DNA of 64,000 nucleotides from Patescibacteria group bacterium (GCA_018819405.1 JAHJQF010000001.1:907377-971376); one strand, 5' to 3'. Shown: positions 2,535 through 63,096, numbered from the stretch's first letter. Translations and numbers: made by a program. The notes: generated from the letters alone by a model not told the origin.

Positions 2535-3647
2535 TTATTTAGCAAAAATAGTTATAGTATCTCTGGCTGCCTGATTATAAGAATAATCATAATTAAGCTC
2601 TGAAATAACTTTTGTATAATCTTGGTAAACTTTTTCATCAAGCAGTTCATCAATGGCCCTAGTCATATCCTGATAACTCAATGGATCAAAAGTTCTAATC
2701 TTATCACGCAACCAAGAAAAACCAATTTCACTGGTACTTAGTATTGGCACATTGAGACTGACTGCTTCAAGCATTGAATTGGGGCTGATATCAGTCAGTG
2801 ACGGCCAGACTAGCAGATAGGCATTGGCAATTCTTTTTTTCAAATCCTGACGAGAAAGTTTTTCTTCCATGTGAATATTATCGGCACCAAGCTCAGCAAT
2901 TAAATTTTGTATATCTTTTTTGAGAGGCCCTTCACCAATGAGTACCAAAGTGTATGAATGATCATGAATATCATGAAAGGCTCTGATAAAATTCAATATA
3001 TTATTTTTGTGAATAAAGCGTCCTGAAAAAATTATTTCTTTACTGACTTGCTCTCTGACAATAGCATCTGATAAGACAATTGGATTTTTGATAATAAAAA
3101 GTTTGTTATCTGCTAATTCATAATATTTTTTAAAAATTTCTTTTTGGAAACTAGTAGTAAAAATAATGCCCGTAGCCTGCCTGAAAATAAATCTTATGAT
3201 TTTGAACCTAAAATTTTCTGCTTGCTTATGAATACCTCGTTTATAAAAATCATGTAAAGTAACCAAGGCACCTGTCATATCCAAATATCTTTCCCAAATA
3301 AAATCACCACCGACCCTAATATAAAATGGCTTTTTATAAATACGGCAAAATAAAGCTGTAGGAATACCGGCACTAAAATGATCAAAACTATATATAATAT
3401 CGGCGTTTTTGGCTATTTTTTGAAGCTTTTGAAAATATCTCCAATAATTAAGCAATTTATTGGCTCGTTTTATCCTAAAAACAGGGTAGCCAAAACCACT
3501 GTCAAAATCATACCTAGCCTTGTCAGAATAAGTAAGTACTTCTACTTTGTGCCCCATTTTTATAAATTCTCTGGCAATATTGGGAGCATAAGTAGCTGGG
3601 CCACCAAGCTCTGGCACAAAAATTCCTGTTGCTATCACTATTTTCAC
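2535..3647 (-). CDS. glycosyltransferase (GT4-like), GTG start
   Basis: N-terminus MKIVIATGIFVPELGGPATYAPN. GT-B fold signature. 370 aa. Confidence 0.65.
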   Translation of the reverse strand: MKIVIATGIFVPELGGPATYAPNIAREFIKMGHKVEVLTYSDKARYDFDSGFGYPVFRIKRANKLLNYWRYFQKLQKIAKNADIIYSFDHFSAGIPTALFCRIYKKPFYIRVGGDFIWERYLDMTGALVTLHDFYKRGIHKQAENFRFKIIRFIFRQATGIIFTTSFQKEIFKKYYELADNKLFIIKNPIVLSDAIVREQVSKEIIFSGRFIHKNNILNFIRAFHDIHDHSYTLVLIGEGPLKKDIQNLIAELGADNIHMEEKLSRQDLKKRIANAYLLVWPSLTDISPNSMLEAVSLNVPILSTSEIGFSWLRDKIRTFDPLSYQDMTRAIDELLDEKVYQDYTKVISELNYDYSYNQAARDTITIFAK

Positions 3648-3678: not shown

Positions 3679-3767
3679 TTTGTCATTGCGAGGATCCGCC
3701 AGCTGGCGGAGACGAAGCAATCTACAAGCTTTTAGATTGCCACGCCCTTCGGGCTCGCAATGACAAA
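3679..3767. repeat. 89-bp palindromic element with perfect 14-bp terminal inverted repeats (TTTGTCATTGCGAG / CTCGCAATGACAAA), abutting the GIY-YIG stop codon
   Basis: Terminal inverted repeats (TIRs) read directly. Inner CCGCCAGCTGGCGG hairpin. Conserved core AATCTACAAGCTTTTAGATT, shared with the repeats at 19981-20184. Confidence 0.7.
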
Positions 3768-3769
3768 TA

Positions 3770-4057
3770 TTACAATTTATTATATAAATTAGCCCAATTT
3801 TTATTATATTTTTCTATTAAATCAATCTTTTTCTGTCTTGACCCCGCTTTAATTTGCTTTTCTCTAGATATAGCTTCATAAGCATCTTCATATATTTCAT
3901 AATATACTAATTTATTGATACTATATCGTGATGTAAATGATTTATTATCTAGTTTTTCTTTATGTTGCCATACTCTAACAATTAAATCATTTGTTACTCC
4001 TGTATATAATGTACCCTGTTTATGATTAGCCAAAATATAAACAAAATATTGTCTCAT
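3770..4057 (-). CDS. GIY-YIG nuclease family protein (small, about 95 aa)
   Basis: YFVYILANHKQGTLYTGVTNDLIVRVWQHK = GIY...YIG motif. Confidence 0.8.
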   Translation of the reverse strand: MRQYFVYILANHKQGTLYTGVTNDLIVRVWQHKEKLDNKSFTSRYSINKLVYYEIYEDAYEAISREKQIKAGSRQKKIDLIEKYNKNWANLYNKL

Positions 4058-6575: not shown

Positions 6576-7025
6576 ATGAAGAAGAAAAGTGAGATTACTA
6601 ATCAACAGATACTAAAGGCCATACAAGTATTGGATAAAAAGGTCAACAAAAATAGCGCAAATCTTGATAAATTAGCTGGTGCTATTAATATTTTTGCCGA
6701 CGACAACGAAGGACGTTTCAATGGCATTGACCAGCGTTTTGAGAAAATAGACCAACGTTTTGAGAAAATAGACCAGCGTTTTGAGAAAATAGACCAACGT
6801 TTTGAGAAAATAGACCAACGGCTCAATAAAATTGAAACAACAATGGTCAGCAAAGAATATTTGGACGAAAAACTACTTGATCTAAAAGGCGATCTAATAG
6901 TCACCATCCGAAAAGAAGATAAAAAATTGGGTACTTTAGTAAAAATTTTGGAAAATAAAAAGGTAATATCAAAAAAAGAAACTCAAACTATTATGTCACT
7001 AGAGCCTTTTCCCAACAATACTTAA
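6576..7025 (+). CDS. coiled-coil repeat protein (5x FEKIDQR heptad)
   Basis: The 21-bp tandem DNA repeat GACCAGCGTTTTGAGAAAATA at 6729-6833 encodes IDQRFEK x5. Confidence 0.5.
   Translation: MKKKSEITNQQILKAIQVLDKKVNKNSANLDKLAGAINIFADDNEGRFNGIDQRFEKIDQRFEKIDQRFEKIDQRFEKIDQRLNKIETTMVSKEYLDEKLLDLKGDLIVTIRKEDKKLGTLVKILENKKVISKKETQTIMSLEPFPNNT
6729..6833 (+). repeat. 5 tandem copies of a 21-bp repeat inside the CDS
   Basis: Direct reading: gaccagcgttttgagaaaata / gaccaacgttttgagaaaata ... Confidence 0.9.
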
Positions 7026-18598: not shown

Positions 18599-19972
18599 TT
18601 AGTAAAGTTCGTTATCAGTCACAGCCTGTTTGGGATCCAAAAGTGGATCTACCTTTATAGCCGAGGCTTGCAAATCAGTATTTATCTCCGGAGTTTGAGG
18701 CACATCATCTGATTTGGTTTCAGTCTCTGAGTCATTTTCATCTGTACTAGATGTGTTGTCATCACTTGTTTCAAGTAAATCTGCTCCCAAGATATTATTA
18801 TTATTTATGGCATCCTCAATTTCTTTTAATACCACTTCTGCTCTTTGATATTCTTCTTTTATTTGAGCAATCATTTCATAAGCATTGCGCAAAAATCCAT
18901 CTTCTAGCAAAGCTTTGGCCTCATCAAGTATCAAAGCTACTTCTTCTGAATTATTAATATCTAGCCTTTCCAGCTCACCACTAGCTTGATTGACAGCCAT
19001 ATTTTCTTTTTTCAAAGTGGAGCCATCTTCAGCTCCGGCTACCTCAGCCATTTGCTTTACAGTATCAACTTCTTGGCTAGTTTCATCTATTTCTGAAGCA
19101 ATTATTCCTTTGACTAAATTTTTGACTGATTCAGCATCTTTTTCACTGGTAGTATTATGATTGGTGTTGCCAACAAATTCACTGGTAGTAGTCTCATTGT
19201 TTATATTATTTTCAACATCAGTCTTGTCCTGCTCAGCATGACTAGCGGCCAATACTTCTTCGTGAACTTCCAGAGCTAGAGCAACCGCTTTGTCTTTGGA
19301 CACCTTATTGGCTGCTTGTGCACTATTGAGAGCATCGGAAATATTTTGGTCAGCTGAGGCAACTTCTTTTTTCTTTTTTAGATTGTTATCAACTTCTTTA
19401 CTAGCATCAGTGACTTTTTTTACCAATTCCACTACTTCTAGAGGTTTTTTTTCTTCTTTGGCTATTTTTAGTGAGCTATCAACTGCTACCACATCTTTGG
19501 TAAAATGAATCACAGCTTGTTTGATAGCTTTTTCTTGTTTTTCTGGAGTGCTATTTTCAGAGCCCAATATTTTATCAATTTCATTCAAACGCTCATTAAT
19601 ATGTTTGATATAGATTTCAGTTTCTTTGATTGGACTAAAAGTCAAAGTAATTTCGGCTTTTTCTATAGATCTCTTGATTGGCCAAAAAGCCTGACCTGGC
19701 ACAGAAGCCTGAGCAGTGTAGCTAACACCTGTACCCATCACTATGATCAAAAAAACCGCTACCGCTCTACTAAAAGAAGGAGCCAACTTATTTAAAAGTC
19801 TGGAAGCAAACAAATCCAGCTTTTCCTTGCGGTCCAGCTTTTGTGCCTGCATCAGTCTGTTTTGAGAAGCTATTTCTGACAACAGATCAAATTTGGTTGT
19901 GGACTCCCATCTCTTATCCGGTTGAATGGACTTGAGATTTCTAATGTGGGAGATTTTTTTAGTTAAACTCAT
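18599..19972 (-). CDS. membrane-anchored putative anti-sigma factor (DUF5667-like), acidic C-terminal tail
   Basis: 457 aa. Cytoplasmic N-terminus, single TM (AVAVFLIIVMGTGV), then a periplasmic domain. Sits immediately downstream of the ECF sigma gene. Confidence 0.4.
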   Translation of the reverse strand: MSLTKKISHIRNLKSIQPDKRWESTTKFDLLSEIASQNRLMQAQKLDRKEKLDLFASRLLNKLAPSFSRAVAVFLIIVMGTGVSYTAQASVPGQAFWPIKRSIEKAEITLTFSPIKETEIYIKHINERLNEIDKILGSENSTPEKQEKAIKQAVIHFTKDVVAVDSSLKIAKEEKKPLEVVELVKKVTDASKEVDNNLKKKKEVASADQNISDALNSAQAANKVSKDKAVALALEVHEEVLAASHAEQDKTDVENNINNETTTSEFVGNTNHNTTSEKDAESVKNLVKGIIASEIDETSQEVDTVKQMAEVAGAEDGSTLKKENMAVNQASGELERLDINNSEEVALILDEAKALLEDGFLRNAYEMIAQIKEEYQRAEVVLKEIEDAINNNNILGADLLETSDDNTSSTDENDSETETKSDDVPQTPEINTDLQASAIKVDPLLDPKQAVTDNELY

Positions 19973-19980
19973 AGTTTTTA

Positions 19981-20184
19981 TGCGCGATTATTTTATTCAC
20001 TCCTTGTCATTCCGGACTCGCTCCGGAATCTACAAACTTTTAGTTTCCCGCTTGCGCGAGAATGACGAGAAGAGGTTAGCGATTATTTTATGCACTCCTT
20101 GTCATTCCGGACTCGCTCCGGAATCTACAAACTTTTAGTTTCCCGCTTGCGCGAGAATGACGAGAAGAGGTTAGCGATTATTTT
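19981..20184. repeat. about 2.2 tandem copies of a 95-bp structured repeat (CACTCCTTGTCATTCCGGACTCGCTCCGGAATCTACAAACTTTTAGTTTCCCGCTTGCGCGAGAATGACGAGAAGAGGTTAGCGATTATTTT)
   Basis: Exact 95-bp period (19998 and 20093). Internal hairpins. Family member of the element at 3679-3767. Overlaps the last 4 codons of the sigma gene. Confidence 0.85.
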
Positions 20185-20755
20185 TTTCTTGGATAATTTG
20201 CTTTAGCTTGTTTAGAGCCCGATGTAGTGTCACCCTGATATTATTTTTGTCTTTCTGCATTACATCAGATATATCATCAATGGAAAGATCTTCTATATAT
20301 CTTAATATCAAGACTTCTTGATATTCAGGTTTTAGCTTGCGAATCTCTTGGAGTAGGACAGCAGCATCAATGGATTTGTCAACTTCAGTGGTGATACTTT
20401 TGCTCATATCAGCTAATTCACTAATATATTCTAGGGGTAATTCTTGACTATTAGATGCTCTATAATGATCAACTACTGAATTACGAGCTATTCTGAATAT
20501 AAAGGCCTGAAAACTTTTGATATTTTTTTTATCTACCAAATGTTGCCAGACTTTAAGGAAAACCTCTTGAGTCAAATCTTCAGCCAACTGTCTATTAGTT
20601 ACCTTTATATAGATAAATCTATATATGTTTTTTACGTATTTATCGTAAAAAAAACCGAAAGCCTCTGAGTCACCAGATTTGAGCCTTAAAAAAGCTATTT
20701 TTTCTTGTAAACTACTACGTAATGTCTTCATAGATATAGACGCAAAAATAGCCAA
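20171..20755 (-). CDS. ECF-type sigma-70 family RNA polymerase sigma factor
   Basis: Region 2 (YRFIYIKVTNRQLAEDLTQEVFLKVW) and region 4 (LILRYIEDLSIDDISDVM...VTLHRALNKL). Confidence 0.8.
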   Translation of the reverse strand: MAIFASISMKTLRSSLQEKIAFLRLKSGDSEAFGFFYDKYVKNIYRFIYIKVTNRQLAEDLTQEVFLKVWQHLVDKKNIKSFQAFIFRIARNSVVDHYRASNSQELPLEYISELADMSKSITTEVDKSIDAAVLLQEIRKLKPEYQEVLILRYIEDLSIDDISDVMQKDKNNIRVTLHRALNKLKQIIQEKNNR

Positions 20756-54239: not shown

Positions 54240-55037
54240 TTAAAAACTAAAACTAATAGTACCTAAGTCCTGAGTATTTTCTATTTCACACCCTACTTTT
54301 TTCAATCTTTCTATTGCTTCCTGATGCGGGTGGCCAAATTTATTGTCCAAGCCAGATTGAATAATACAAAATTCGGGCTGTACAGCCTGCAAAAACTCTA
54401 GTGATGAAGAATATTTACTACCATGATGGCCGACTTTTAGATACTGGGAATTTAAATCAAAACCACCGGACAATAACTTTTGTTCCCCTTCTATTGGCAA
54501 ATCTCCCATCAATAAAACATTTTTATCTTTATAGCTTAGTTTTATAACTACTGAGTTTTCATTGAAATCTTCATGCCAGTAGTCAGCTAAAAGAACCCTA
54601 AAATATAAATCATCGGAAAACATAAAACTCTCGCCTGCTTGTACAATTTGTGGTTGGATATTATTTTCTTGTAATTTTTGGGTAAAGATATTATACAAAA
54701 AATGATCGGGCTGGTGATTACTCACCAAAACATGTTTTACTTCGTACTTTTCTAAAAGCTCTACAAAACCCATCATATGATCATCATGCCAATGAGTAAT
54801 AATCAAATAATCAATCGTGTCCTCCCACCAAGGAAGTTTGTCGGCCATTTGGGACAAGAGCAGATTGTCCGGCCCGCCGTCTATCAAAATATTTTGACCA
54901 TCAGGAGTACGAATTAAAATTGCATCACCTTGCCCAACATCCAAAAAATTAATCGCTAGTTTATTTTCTATTCTATAAAAAGAAAAAAATAAAGCTGACA
55001 AAATTATTAGGGTTATAAAAAATATTGTTTTATTCAT
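54240..55037 (-). CDS. ComEC C-terminal metallo-beta-lactamase domain protein (separate ORF with N-terminal TM)
   Basis: THWHDDHMMG motif, GHHGSKYSS. Confidence 0.75.
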   Translation of the reverse strand: MNKTIFFITLIILSALFFSFYRIENKLAINFLDVGQGDAILIRTPDGQNILIDGGPDNLLLSQMADKLPWWEDTIDYLIITHWHDDHMMGFVELLEKYEVKHVLVSNHQPDHFLYNIFTQKLQENNIQPQIVQAGESFMFSDDLYFRVLLADYWHEDFNENSVVIKLSYKDKNVLLMGDLPIEGEQKLLSGGFDLNSQYLKVGHHGSKYSSSLEFLQAVQPEFCIIQSGLDNKFGHPHQEAIERLKKVGCEIENTQDLGTISFSF

Positions 55038-55069
55038 ATGTTTATATAAATTAACCCACTATACCAAAT

Positions 55070-55182
55070 TTATATTTGTCATCCTGAACTTGTTTCAGGA
55101 TCTCCGATTGGAGATGCCGAAATACCCGCCTGCCATGACTACTGTCAGGCATGTCGGGCAGGAATTCGGCATAACAAAAATA
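55070..55182. repeat. structured GC-richer element (TTTGTCATCC plus hairpin ATCCTGAActtgTTCAGGAT ...) immediately 3' of the second GIY-YIG gene
   Basis: Same architecture as 3679-3767. Confidence 0.5.
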
Positions 55183-55473
55183 TCACAAAAAATCATCGCT
55201 AATATCCTCCCATTTTTTATTAACCGATTCCACTAAATTGTTCTTCCAATCTCTATGCCAATTTTTTAATTGTTTTTCTCTACAAATAGCATCATGCATA
55301 TGCTGATATACCTCATAATAAACCAGCTTTATAACATTATATGGCTTAGTAAAACCAATAATATCTTTATTTTTGTGTTGTTTTATCCTATTTATTAAAT
55401 CGCCAGTGACACCAATATACATAACATTATTATTTTGATTAGTTAAAATATAAACATAATATTCTTTATTCAT
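55183..55473 (-). CDS. GIY-YIG nuclease family protein (paralog of 3770..4057)
   Basis: YYVYILTNQNNNVMYIGVTGDLINRIKQHK. Confidence 0.8.
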   Translation of the reverse strand: MNKEYYVYILTNQNNNVMYIGVTGDLINRIKQHKNKDIIGFTKPYNVIKLVYYEVYQHMHDAICREKQLKNWHRDWKNNLVESVNKKWEDISDDFL

Positions 55474-56782
55474 AATTTTGAGGCTTAATTATAAAAGTCA
55501 AAATAAACATAAAACAAAGAAAAAAAATCATATAAAAACTACTGAAATCTTGTACTTCAATATAAGCCCTGGGTAATTGGGAAAGATAAAAAGATAAGAC
55601 AACAATTATCTTTAAAATAATAAAAAGCGGCCAAGCTAATAATTTTGCCAAAAATGGCCAAAAACCAAACCCCGCTAAAAACAGACTAAATACCAAAACC
55701 AATGGCAAAAAGGGCAAAATCAAAAAATTAGCCAAGGGCGCTACAATTGACACAATACCAAAATAATAAACAATCAAAGGCCAGGTAAATATTTGAGCGG
55801 CTAGGGTCACAGACATTACTTCTCTCAACTTAAATTTTTGGGGTACAAAAAACAAAACTTTCTGGAAAAATTTTACATAATAAAGCAAACCCAAGACTGC
55901 CAAAAATGACAATTGAAAACCTATATCATATAAAAGTAAATATGGATTGAGTAAGACAAATATATCAGCAGCCAAAACAAGGCTATATATAGATTCTGTA
56001 TCCCTGCCCAAAAAAGGCCCTAACATTAATATAGATAGCATCAAACTGGCTCGAACTGCCGAAGCTGGAAATCCTATCAAATATAAATATAAAAATAATA
56101 TTAAAATTAAAAACCAAAAGGCTTTTTTTCTAGACAAACCAATAGCAAACAAAAAACTCCTGACTAGCCAAACTATAATAGCCATATGCAGTCCGGAAAT
56201 AGCTACCACATGACTCAGGCCCACTTGAGCAAAAATATTTCTGGTATCACCAGGTATTTCCCGACGACTGGCCAGAAGCATAGCCTTGGCTAGTGATGAA
56301 GCCGGCTCACGAAGATAAATGTCAAGATTTTTCCAAAAATAATTTTTGGCTTGAAAAATATAAAAAGAAATACCTTTATCTTGAGAAATATATTTTACCT
56401 TTGGACGAAAACAAGTAGCATATATATTGTCCTTGGCTAAATATTTATCATAAAAAAATGTTTTGCCTTCATCATCCTCTATTGGCTCTGGTTTGTAAAC
56501 TTTGCCTGATAGTTCTAAAACATCACCATAATAATACTCTGGATACAAAGGAATATAGACTAAAATATTTCCGGAAAAATTATCTAAATCCAAAGGCTCT
56601 ACTAATATATTCCAACCATCTATCTTTTTGTCGGTATTTATTACTTTAGCTTTAAAACTATAAAAATTATCAAAAATAAAACCGGGATTATTTTCCCGAT
56701 TGTCAAAATATAGCAACCAAACAAAATTGAGTGCCAAAAAAATAAAACTAACCCCTAAAAAGCCTTGGCTTTTGCTCATCAA
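55466..56782 (-). CDS. comEC: ComEC N-terminal (DUF4131/OB) plus competence membrane domain
   Basis: GLSHVVAISGLHMAII and SFLAV motifs. Stop overlaps the GIY-YIG start. Confidence 0.75.
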   Translation of the reverse strand: MMSKSQGFLGVSFIFLALNFVWLLYFDNRENNPGFIFDNFYSFKAKVINTDKKIDGWNILVEPLDLDNFSGNILVYIPLYPEYYYGDVLELSGKVYKPEPIEDDEGKTFFYDKYLAKDNIYATCFRPKVKYISQDKGISFYIFQAKNYFWKNLDIYLREPASSLAKAMLLASRREIPGDTRNIFAQVGLSHVVAISGLHMAIIVWLVRSFLFAIGLSRKKAFWFLILILFLYLYLIGFPASAVRASLMLSILMLGPFLGRDTESIYSLVLAADIFVLLNPYLLLYDIGFQLSFLAVLGLLYYVKFFQKVLFFVPQKFKLREVMSVTLAAQIFTWPLIVYYFGIVSIVAPLANFLILPFLPLVLVFSLFLAGFGFWPFLAKLLAWPLFIILKIIVVLSFYLSQLPRAYIEVQDFSSFYMIFFLCFMFILTFIIKPQNYE

Positions 56783-62810: not shown

Positions 62811-63096
62811 GCCATCTACCTCCTTGAAAAGAACAAACTTTGAAACTATCAAAAAAACTCTCACTAAGGAGAGTGGTGACAAAATTATTAAGCTTTAATA
62901 AATTCATCCTTTTGCTCCTTAGGCAAAGAATAAAACTCAGGTGTCGGACTTGTTCTCCCTACATTGGAGACTTACCGTAGCTAGGACTGCGGAGGATTTG
63001 CACCTCACTTCCCTGATTGAATTGTCAAAGTGAATTTATCTTAACACAGAGTAAAACGATTGACAACTGTCTGTGACCTTATACATTGTTGATAAG

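Follow-up and report, generated by a model that had tools for sequence, protein, structure and literature searches.

The sigma/anti-sigma locus and its tandem array

The DNA analysed here, referred to below as the window, is a stretch of 64,000 nucleotides from the 1.04-Mb genome of a Patescibacteria group bacterium. Its minus strand carries a gene for an ECF sigma factor (20171..20731, alternative start 20755), recognized by the Pfam families Sigma70_r2/r4, and a second gene (18599..19972, with its ATG at 19970-19972) for a DUF5667 putative anti-sigma, the kind of protein that accompanies such sigma factors. The two are separated by a tandem array at 19984-20184, for which Tandem Repeats Finder returns a period of 95, 2.1 copies, 99% matches and a score of 395, in keeping with the 95-bp periodicity of the original prediction. 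The same prediction placed the array across the end of the sigma gene and 9 bp short of the downstream gene. The sigma gene does end inside the repeat, with its stop codon at 20171-20173, but the gap between the array and the anti-sigma ATG is 11 nt rather than 9.

The array has the layout T-E-T-E-T, in which an 84-bp element, E (hereafter E1), occurs twice and an 11-bp direct repeat, T, three times. The first direct repeat (T1, 19984..19994) reads GCGATTATTTT, or AAAATAATCGC on the minus strand, and occurs once at the empty site of relatives described below. It is followed by the first copy of the element (E1a, 19995..20078), a second direct repeat (T2, 20079..20089), the second copy (E1b, 20090..20173) and a third direct repeat (T3, 20174..20184). 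Within the element, a forward Ssn-related motif (SRM) and a reverse SRM are separated by a spacer of 15 nt, with outer extensions of 11 nt before the first and 12 nt after the second. The sigma gene stops in the last 3 nt of E1b, which read TAA on the minus strand, and T3 codes for the final residues of the sigma factor (..NNR). The two copies differ by a single SNP, T at 19997 versus G at 20092, and have about 50% G+C in a window and genome of 36%. Their two ends, 11-12 nt beyond the GTCAT on either side, form no more than an imperfect inverted repeat (CTCCTTGTCATTC versus CTTCTCGTCATTC). Both features from which a structured repeat had been predicted are present as described, namely an outer stem, GTCATTC/GAATGAC, and an inner hairpin, TCCGGActcgcTCCGGA.

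The right-hand junction of the array is read through by an independent short-read assembly (Logan SRR6514730, contig L220, which starts inside the element); because L220 crosses this same junction, the array is not an artefact of a single assembly. Logan contigs from this organism break inside the tandem array (L220 start, position 1) and also inside the doublet that forms the tail of the first nuclease gene of the window (L001 end, position 3020), and breaks at both elements hint at further genomic copies. By profile search, the 64-kb window holds the two tandem copies of E1 and no others, and none were found in the corresponding loci of relatives.

An empty site in related genomes

The nearest relative, whose sigma factor (P0002) is 85% identical and whose locus is syntenic (contigs L002, L003 and L004), carries the sequence ..GAAAAAAATAATCGCGCATAAAAATTTTATG.. 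at the orthologous position, with T present once and no E1. In the nucleotide alignment, the empty site of this relative (..CAAGAAAAAAATAATCGCGCATAAAAATTTTATG..) faces a window minus strand in which the 11-mer AAAATAATCGC occurs three times around two copies of the element. The distance from the sigma stop to the anti-sigma start is 7 nt in all three contigs of the nearest relative, and two further, more distant relatives, also without the element, have gaps of 23 and 10 nt. The window has 198 nt at this position, as against 7-23 nt in the relatives, the insertion having added 190 nt of hairpin-rich sequence between the two genes. The C-terminus of the sigma factor was changed at the same time, from an ancestral ..NNRA* to ..NNR*, with the stop codon supplied by the element.

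The array is an insertion, because the closest relative carries T once, without E1, and with its genes 7 nt apart. As in a MITE, the insert is small (84 bp) and non-coding, a relative has the empty site, and the flanking repeat of 11 bp is derived from the target. The copies of E1 are mobile DNA rather than native intergenic sequence. The original prediction of a mobile, REP/MITE-like family is borne out: none of the relatives examined has the element at the orthologous position, an 11-bp direct repeat brackets it, and similar sequences form a large dispersed family.

A doublet of Ssn-related motifs

The affiliation of this family, to which the original prediction made no link, is provided by a recently described system of nucleases and hairpin repeats. 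SsnA of Neisseria meningitidis is a 94-aa single-domain GIY-YIG nuclease (CDD cd10448) that binds the hairpin repeat NTS (CGTCATTCCCGCGMAVGCGGGAATCYRG) solely as single-stranded DNA (Chenal et al., Nat Commun 2025; PMC11893778). It cuts a few nt 5′ of NTS, at about 3 nt as judged from oligonucleotide lengths, and is inactive on double-stranded DNA, RNA and the reverse strand; its recognition is sequence-specific (PMC11893778). In Neisseria, Ssn restricts transformation by NTS-bearing DNA, and NTS-like Ssn-related motifs adjoin ssn homologues across bacterial phyla (PMC11893778). Rolling-circle concatemers are cut by Ssn to unit lengths in vitro, and the repeat-ssn-repeat arrangement was likened to an insertion sequence, its mobility being left as a hypothesis (PMC11893778). 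A search for follow-up literature to this paper found none, and the arm sequences of the element matched only human primers in full-text literature. Apart from the Ssn paper, nothing pertinent was found on GIY-YIG proteins in connection with repeats, MITEs or CPR bacteria.

E1 is an inverted doublet of two different hairpin modules that share the grammar GTC-palindrome-C. The plus-strand module, of CCGGA type (20006..20030, second copy 20101-20125), reads GTCATTCCGGActcgcTCCGGAATC, with an 8-bp stem, a 5-nt loop and a C after the stem. The other module, of NTS type, lies on the minus strand (20040..20067, second copy 20135-20162); its sequence is CGTCATTCTCGCGCAAGCGGGAAACTAA, and it reads CGTCATTCTCGCGCAAGCGGGAAAC on the minus strand. 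Both have 8-bp stems with loops of 4-5 nt, and both have a GTCWY head and a C after the palindrome (GTCATTCCGGA..TCCGGAAT-C and GTCATTCTCGC..GCGGGAAA-C). The NTS-type module agrees with the Neisseria NTS consensus at 25/28 positions and departs from the published SRM pattern, HGTCWYN(0-2)YYVSBRHN(0-5)WNVSBRGN(0-2)RNCYNB, by one substitution in the final base. The plus-strand module misses this pattern solely where a T-A pair of the stem replaces C-G.

The published pattern has no exact match in the 64-kb window, and its one-substitution matches (3, versus 2.7 in shuffled sequences) are not enriched in number; a lax hairpin grammar does not discriminate either (8 in the window versus 5.4 in shuffles). 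A stricter grammar, taken from the mutagenesis in PMC11893778, consists of GTC, a palindrome beginning at A, and then C. It finds 5 modules in the window versus 0.58 +/- 0.74 in shuffles; the array accounts for four of them and the tail of the second ssn gene for the fifth. Furthermore, a profile built from 75 unrelated metagenomic doublets matches each unit of the array over its full length (E=2.7e-12), and since both units are matched by doublets from unrelated environments, the similarity of E1 to this family is not due to chance. By sequence, the element is a member of the already known Ssn/SRM system, in a phylum where that system was undescribed.

The reading that we consider very probable is that an 84-bp, REPIN-like SRM doublet entered a translationally coupled sigma/anti-sigma pair at its stop/start junction, with an 11-bp direct repeat, and that it then came to be present in two copies, its SRMs being, by homology, single-stranded DNA targets of Ssn nucleases and its effects on the host operon collateral.

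Two ssn-like genes in the window

Two genes for Ssn-like proteins, of 95 and 96 aa, are found on the minus strand of the window. Pfam GIY-YIG is the sole domain of both (E = 4e-13 and 1e-17), and their similarity to 1zg2, a UPF0213 protein of solved structure, is weak (E = 0.002). Y7/Y18/E66 here match in position Y6/Y17/E64, which were mutated in SsnA. The first gene (3770..4057) codes for the 95-aa single-domain protein and is followed, just 3′, by an SRM doublet of GCGAG type at 3682..3764. This doublet is predicted to fold into a four-way junction (z = -8) and is matched by a profile of 130 unrelated doublets (E=2.7e-13). No significant flanking direct repeat was found around the first gene and its tail, where only 7-mers occur, at a 54% chance level.

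Homology between the array and this tail element was part of the original prediction, and it stands at the level of the superfamily: both are inverted SRM doublets with a shared centre of 17 nt. The predicted common core is indeed there, as AATCTACAAACTTTTAG at 20027 and 20122 and as AATCTACAAGCTTTTAG at 3719, and the central 17-mer AATCTACAARCTTTTAG is common to 3719-3735, 20027-20043 and 20122-20138. Profile searches nevertheless assign the two elements to different subfamilies, E1 to a CCGGA/NTS type and the doublet at 3682-3764 to a GCGAG/GCAATC type, and neither subfamily profile matches the window element of the other. Within the 17-mer, the part AATCTA/TAGATT is typical of the family, and the loop is absent from about 200 doublets elsewhere. 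The pattern GTCATTSCG..AATCTACAARCTTTTAG was found in no viral contig and the shared core AATCTACAARCTTTTAGWTTSCC in no metagenome contig. The shared 17-mer could reflect exchange between elements within the genome.

The second gene belongs to a discrete insertion of its own. This insertion, E2, is 426 bp long (55039..55464, minus strand) and comprises the gene and a 3′ tail with an SRM at 55078-55102. It is flanked by a 10-bp direct repeat, TATGAATAAA, whose left copy lies at 55465..55474 and whose right copy lies at 55029-55038, and which is present as a single copy in relatives, where the ORF for a Competence domain and that for an MBL-fold protein overlap. The 96-aa ORF (55183..55473) has its ATG inside the left repeat copy, and the start codon of the MBL gene is inside the right one. 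In relatives (L221-L224) the empty site is occupied by an overlap of 8 nt between the ComEC Competence ORF and the MBL-fold ORF, at ..AAATTATGAATAAATTT... The ssn gene is the sole ORF of E2, which has no terminal inverted repeats. ComEC is natively split in this Patescibacteria clade (window 54240-56782 and L221-L224) into an ORF with the Competence domain and a separate MBL-fold ORF of about 265 aa.

The window therefore shows two discrete insertions, a gene-less one with an 11-bp flanking repeat and one bearing a nuclease gene with a 10-bp flanking repeat, both at tightly coupled gene junctions. An origin of E1 as a deletion derivative of E2 was considered and rejected, the ends of the two sharing no similarity. 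The presence of an ssn unit inside the comEC DNA-uptake locus deserves attention, as Ssn restricts transformation in Neisseria.

The SRM family in other genomes and on phage-like DNA

Homologues of the GIY-YIG protein encoded by the first ssn gene number in the thousands and are about 95 aa long. From these, 80 loci were taken whose proteins are 55-64% identical and whose hosts include Proteobacteria as well as members of many other phyla. The modules GTCATTGCGAG..GAAGCAATC and GATTGCYKCG..CTCGCAATGAC lie directly 3′ of the gene in about 72 of the 80, and the arm motifs cluster within 250 nt on either side of the ssn homologue. Across phyla, the commonest layout is a forward module, the gene and a reverse module (32/84). 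In addition, there are 34 complete doublets that have no ssn gene within 2 kb. This survey reproduces and extends the published association of ssn with SRMs.

Doublets of the CCGGA/NTS type, to which E1 belongs, have an ssn gene nearby in 2 of 92 loci only, directly adjacent in L138. Doublets with the forward module of E1 occur in more than 119 metagenome contigs, mostly with an NTS-type reverse module as partner, as in the window; in one of them (L101) the reverse module is identical to that of the window. The exact forward module (GTCATTCCGGA-N5/6-TCCGGAATC) is also present in 12 viral contigs of IMG/VR (L089-L100), some of which have doublets (L094, L095, L100), so that SRMs are carried on phage-like DNA as well. 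Across the 75 unrelated doublets, the stem of the reverse module is kept through compensatory variants (CCCGC/GCGGG, CCTGC/GCAGG, CCGGC/GCCGG, CTGAA/TTCAG and others). This covariation has no strand bias, as expected of a DNA palindrome.

About 20 of 80 metagenomic doublets are situated centrally in a MITE of about 150 bp with long terminal inverted repeats (CTAGTGTAGTGTCTC...GAGACACTACACTAG). Contigs with such an arrangement include L104, L106, L108, L111, L116, L117, L125, L143, L145, L156, L168, L170, L178 and L179; the terminal inverted repeats of these MITEs read CTAGTGTAGTGTCTCAGAAATGACTTTACA ... ATTGTAAAGAAGTGTTAGAGACACTACACTAG, and on either side the similarity ends at CTAG, an indication that they were mobilised by an ordinary transposase. 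A search for flanking repeats over 186 doublets was dominated by tandem arrays and was restricted to 73 isolated doublets. Among these, 6 (about 2 expected) have direct repeats of 8-9 bp that lie beyond outer inverted repeats, some 25 nt away from the arms, and none has a repeat of 10 bp or more.

Arrays of a doublet with a constant spacer are found in L050, L016 and L086. The array of L050 (8900-11450) has a period of about 106 bp and at least 10 copies around two ssn genes. In Nostoc, the number of doublets that follow the gene varies between strains, the extra copies being bounded by a repeated arm, and in an all-against-all comparison of the fetched loci, variants in the presence or absence of a doublet were seen only within these Nostoc arrays. 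Whole ssn units are also duplicated in tandem, in L078 (10001-10705, two identical genes 148 nt apart) and in L050 (two genes).

Insertion, and the proposed duplication and effects on the host operon

The proposed course of events begins with insertion of the 84-bp SRM doublet at the stop/start junction of the sigma/anti-sigma pair, which left the 11-bp direct repeat of the target. The second copy would most simply have arisen by slippage, or by unequal exchange between the 11-bp repeats across the hairpin-forming insert; alternatively, the target may have received two insertions.

By homology, small single-domain GIY-YIG nucleases of the Ssn kind would bind and cut single-stranded DNA at the SRMs. 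Strand-specific nicking of single-stranded DNA would be expected at the E1 locus during replication, repair or DNA uptake, because the Neisseria Ssn cuts single-stranded DNA just 5′ of its motif. The case for the local nucleases acting on E1 is weakened by the fact that the two ssn genes of the window have hairpins in their tails other than those of E1, given the sequence-specific recognition by Ssn in Neisseria.

Effects on the host operon are collateral: the sigma factor is without its last residue, and the anti-sigma start, once 7 nt from the sigma stop, is now 198 nt away, with two strong hairpin clusters in front of it. The insertion probably weakens the translational coupling of sigma and anti-sigma. 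Since relatives without the element keep the two genes 7-23 nt apart, it is probably a recent and mildly disruptive event rather than an evolved regulator.

What moves the element

Given that E1 is an inserted SRM doublet, the agent of its movement may be sought in an ordinary transposase, in Ssn itself or in recombination at the flanking repeat. That a MITE was moved in trans by a DDE-type transposase, with the SRM doublet as mere cargo or a former landing pad and Ssn uninvolved, is possible rather than probable. Flanking repeats of 10-11 bp fit the staggered double-strand cuts of classical transposases, and IS4-type elements leave direct repeats of 9-12 bp. The doublets centred in MITEs of about 150 bp with terminal inverted repeats point the same way, as do the 8-9-bp direct repeats beyond the outer inverted repeats of isolated doublets. 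The ends of E1 are also off the position at which SsnA of N. meningitidis cuts. Against such a transposase, however, inverted termini in E1 are limited to the SRM arms and a weak extension of 11-12 nt, and a transposase gene was not detected near either insertion. Moreover, E2 has the same kind of flanking repeat with ssn alone as its ORF and with no terminal inverted repeats, and the module-ssn-module order is the commonest layout across phyla.

These last observations also lend themselves to a second reading, in which ssn genes with their SRM hairpins, together with derived gene-less doublets, are true transposable elements that leave a flanking repeat of 10-11 bp, Ssn driving the movement. 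We regard this as doubtful. It is favoured by the IS-like layout of module, gene and module, and by ssn being the only ORF of E2. Against it, the cut of N. meningitidis SsnA falls about 3 nt 5′ of NTS, whereas E1 ends 11-12 nt outside GTCAT, and the MITE-centred doublets and the 8-9-bp repeats point to ordinary transposases with SRMs as cargo. Moreover, we know of no Ssn with a joining or strand-transfer activity. If true, this reading would define a class of prokaryotic mobile elements built on a nuclease fold not known as a bacterial transposase, with the 426-bp ssn unit and the 84-bp doublet as its autonomous and non-autonomous forms.

The repeat of 10-11 bp may alternatively be a core borne by the element itself. 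A unit of T plus E, 95 or 436 nt long, would then integrate at a matching chromosomal sequence, either through recombination as at att sites or through the annealing of rolling-circle or single-stranded copies, and a multimer would give T-E-T-E-T directly. E2 seems to need the repeat sequence, since the start codon of its ssn gene is inside the left repeat copy. The phase of the tandem is arbitrary, as in a concatemer, Ssn cuts rolling-circle concatemers to unit length in vitro (PMC11893778), and both targets are similar AT-rich gene junctions with AATAA. On the other hand, only two events are available and the repeat sequence is different in each, neither a circular form nor a second copy with the same core was seen, and a genome of 1 Mb would offer very few targets with a perfect match of 10-11 nt. 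We consider integration of this kind rather unlikely.

A function at the RNA level had been put forward in the original prediction, in which an RNA structure would couple or attenuate the expression of sigma and anti-sigma. In this form the element would be a cis-regulatory RNA (an attenuator, a stabiliser or a processing site) under selection to adjust the ratio of the two proteins. Its position within an operon, between two co-directional genes, would suit such a role. In the mRNA sense (minus strand) the fold is stable, at -28.7 kcal/mol per unit (z = -3.2), and one imperfect stem pair is a G-U wobble in this sense and a C-A mismatch on the other strand. The fold of the whole array, however, reaches a z of -2.25 only, the stems show no strand bias, and the element family is found in any orientation and context in many phyla. 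Ssn binds single-stranded DNA and not RNA (PMC11893778). Rfam (Rfam 15) gave no match at the gathering threshold for either the array or the 3682-3764 element, with chance-level matches only at E<=10, and no terminator-like or promoter-like site was detected within the array. With no Rfam family, terminator or promoter, and with relatives that have no element and genes 7-23 nt apart, a regulatory role is unsupported, and we hold it to be very unlikely.

Chance similarity, or simple local duplication of native AT-rich intergenic DNA, might be argued from the presence in the window of just two adjacent copies of the CCGGA/NTS subfamily and from a core pattern that is not rare when up to 3 mismatches are allowed (4 matches versus 1.25 expected), but it is refuted by the empty-site alignment, in which 84 bp are missing at the orthologous site, and by the doublet profile matches (E=2.7e-12, unrelated environmental sequences), the G+C content (about 50% versus 36%) also speaking against it.

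Comparison with known systems

The closest likeness is to the Ssn/SRM system itself (SsnA/NTS; PMC11893778). Single-domain GIY-YIG proteins of about 95 aa are common to both, and so are genes flanked by hairpins that have a GTCAT head, a palindrome that starts with ATTC and, behind the stem, a C; in both, repeats occur at a distance from ssn as well, between genes. The present case differs in several respects. The host belongs to the Patescibacteria (CPR), outside the coverage of that paper. The unit is a heterotypic inverted doublet with outer extensions and not a single hairpin, and modules of CCGGA and GCGAG type are missed by the strict published pattern. Finally, a discrete insertion with an 11-bp flanking repeat is observed here, whereas the paper merely hypothesises mobility.

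REP sequences, the REPINs associated with RAYT, and BIMEs resemble E1 in their short palindromes arranged as inverted doublets or arrays, in the association of one small nuclease gene with its own flanking repeats, in the recognition of single-stranded DNA hairpins and in their wide dispersal across genomes. In contrast to these, the partner here is a GIY-YIG protein and not an HUH (Y1) transposase, and the head is GTCAT instead of GTAG, which places E1 outside the REP/REPIN family proper. REPINs and the relatives of IS200/IS605 insert without target duplication, unlike the insertions described here with their flanking repeats of 10-11 bp.

In Neisseria, NTS is an extended dRS3, and NIMEs are arrays of short units bounded by inverted dRS3, comparable to T-E-T-E-T, to L050 and to the arrays of Nostoc. 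NIMEs differ in being large species-specific mosaics. An 11-bp target repeat is, to our knowledge, undescribed for them. The dRS3 sequence is also a target of phage integration.

Classical MITEs (Correia elements, IS-derived MITEs) are likewise small, palindromic and non-coding, with a flanking direct repeat, an empty site and a position at a gene junction where a gene end is altered. E1 differs from them in that it has no long terminal inverted repeats of a known IS and in that its core consists of two different protein-recognition hairpins. Neither a parent IS nor a transposase was found in the window, the profile revealed no longer relative, and E1 does not qualify as a MITE by its terminal inverted repeats or by a transposase.

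Empty sites for an SRM doublet and for an ssn unit are direct evidence of SRM mobility, previously a hypothesis, and the combination of a clean empty site with a flanking repeat is rare. Two such before-and-after comparisons in one 1-Mb genome make mobility testable with defined ends and targets, and they extend the Ssn/SRM system to the ultra-small bacteria of the CPR. For genome annotation, they explain GC-rich palindromes that break assemblies, create spurious ORFs or alter gene ends.

Other features of the window include a 21-bp tandem repeat at 6729-6820 (GACCAACGTTTTGAGAAAATA, 4.4 copies, 95% matches) and a cobalamin riboswitch aptamer on the minus strand at 62919-63050 (Rfam RF00174, 35.5 bits versus a gathering score of 31.5).
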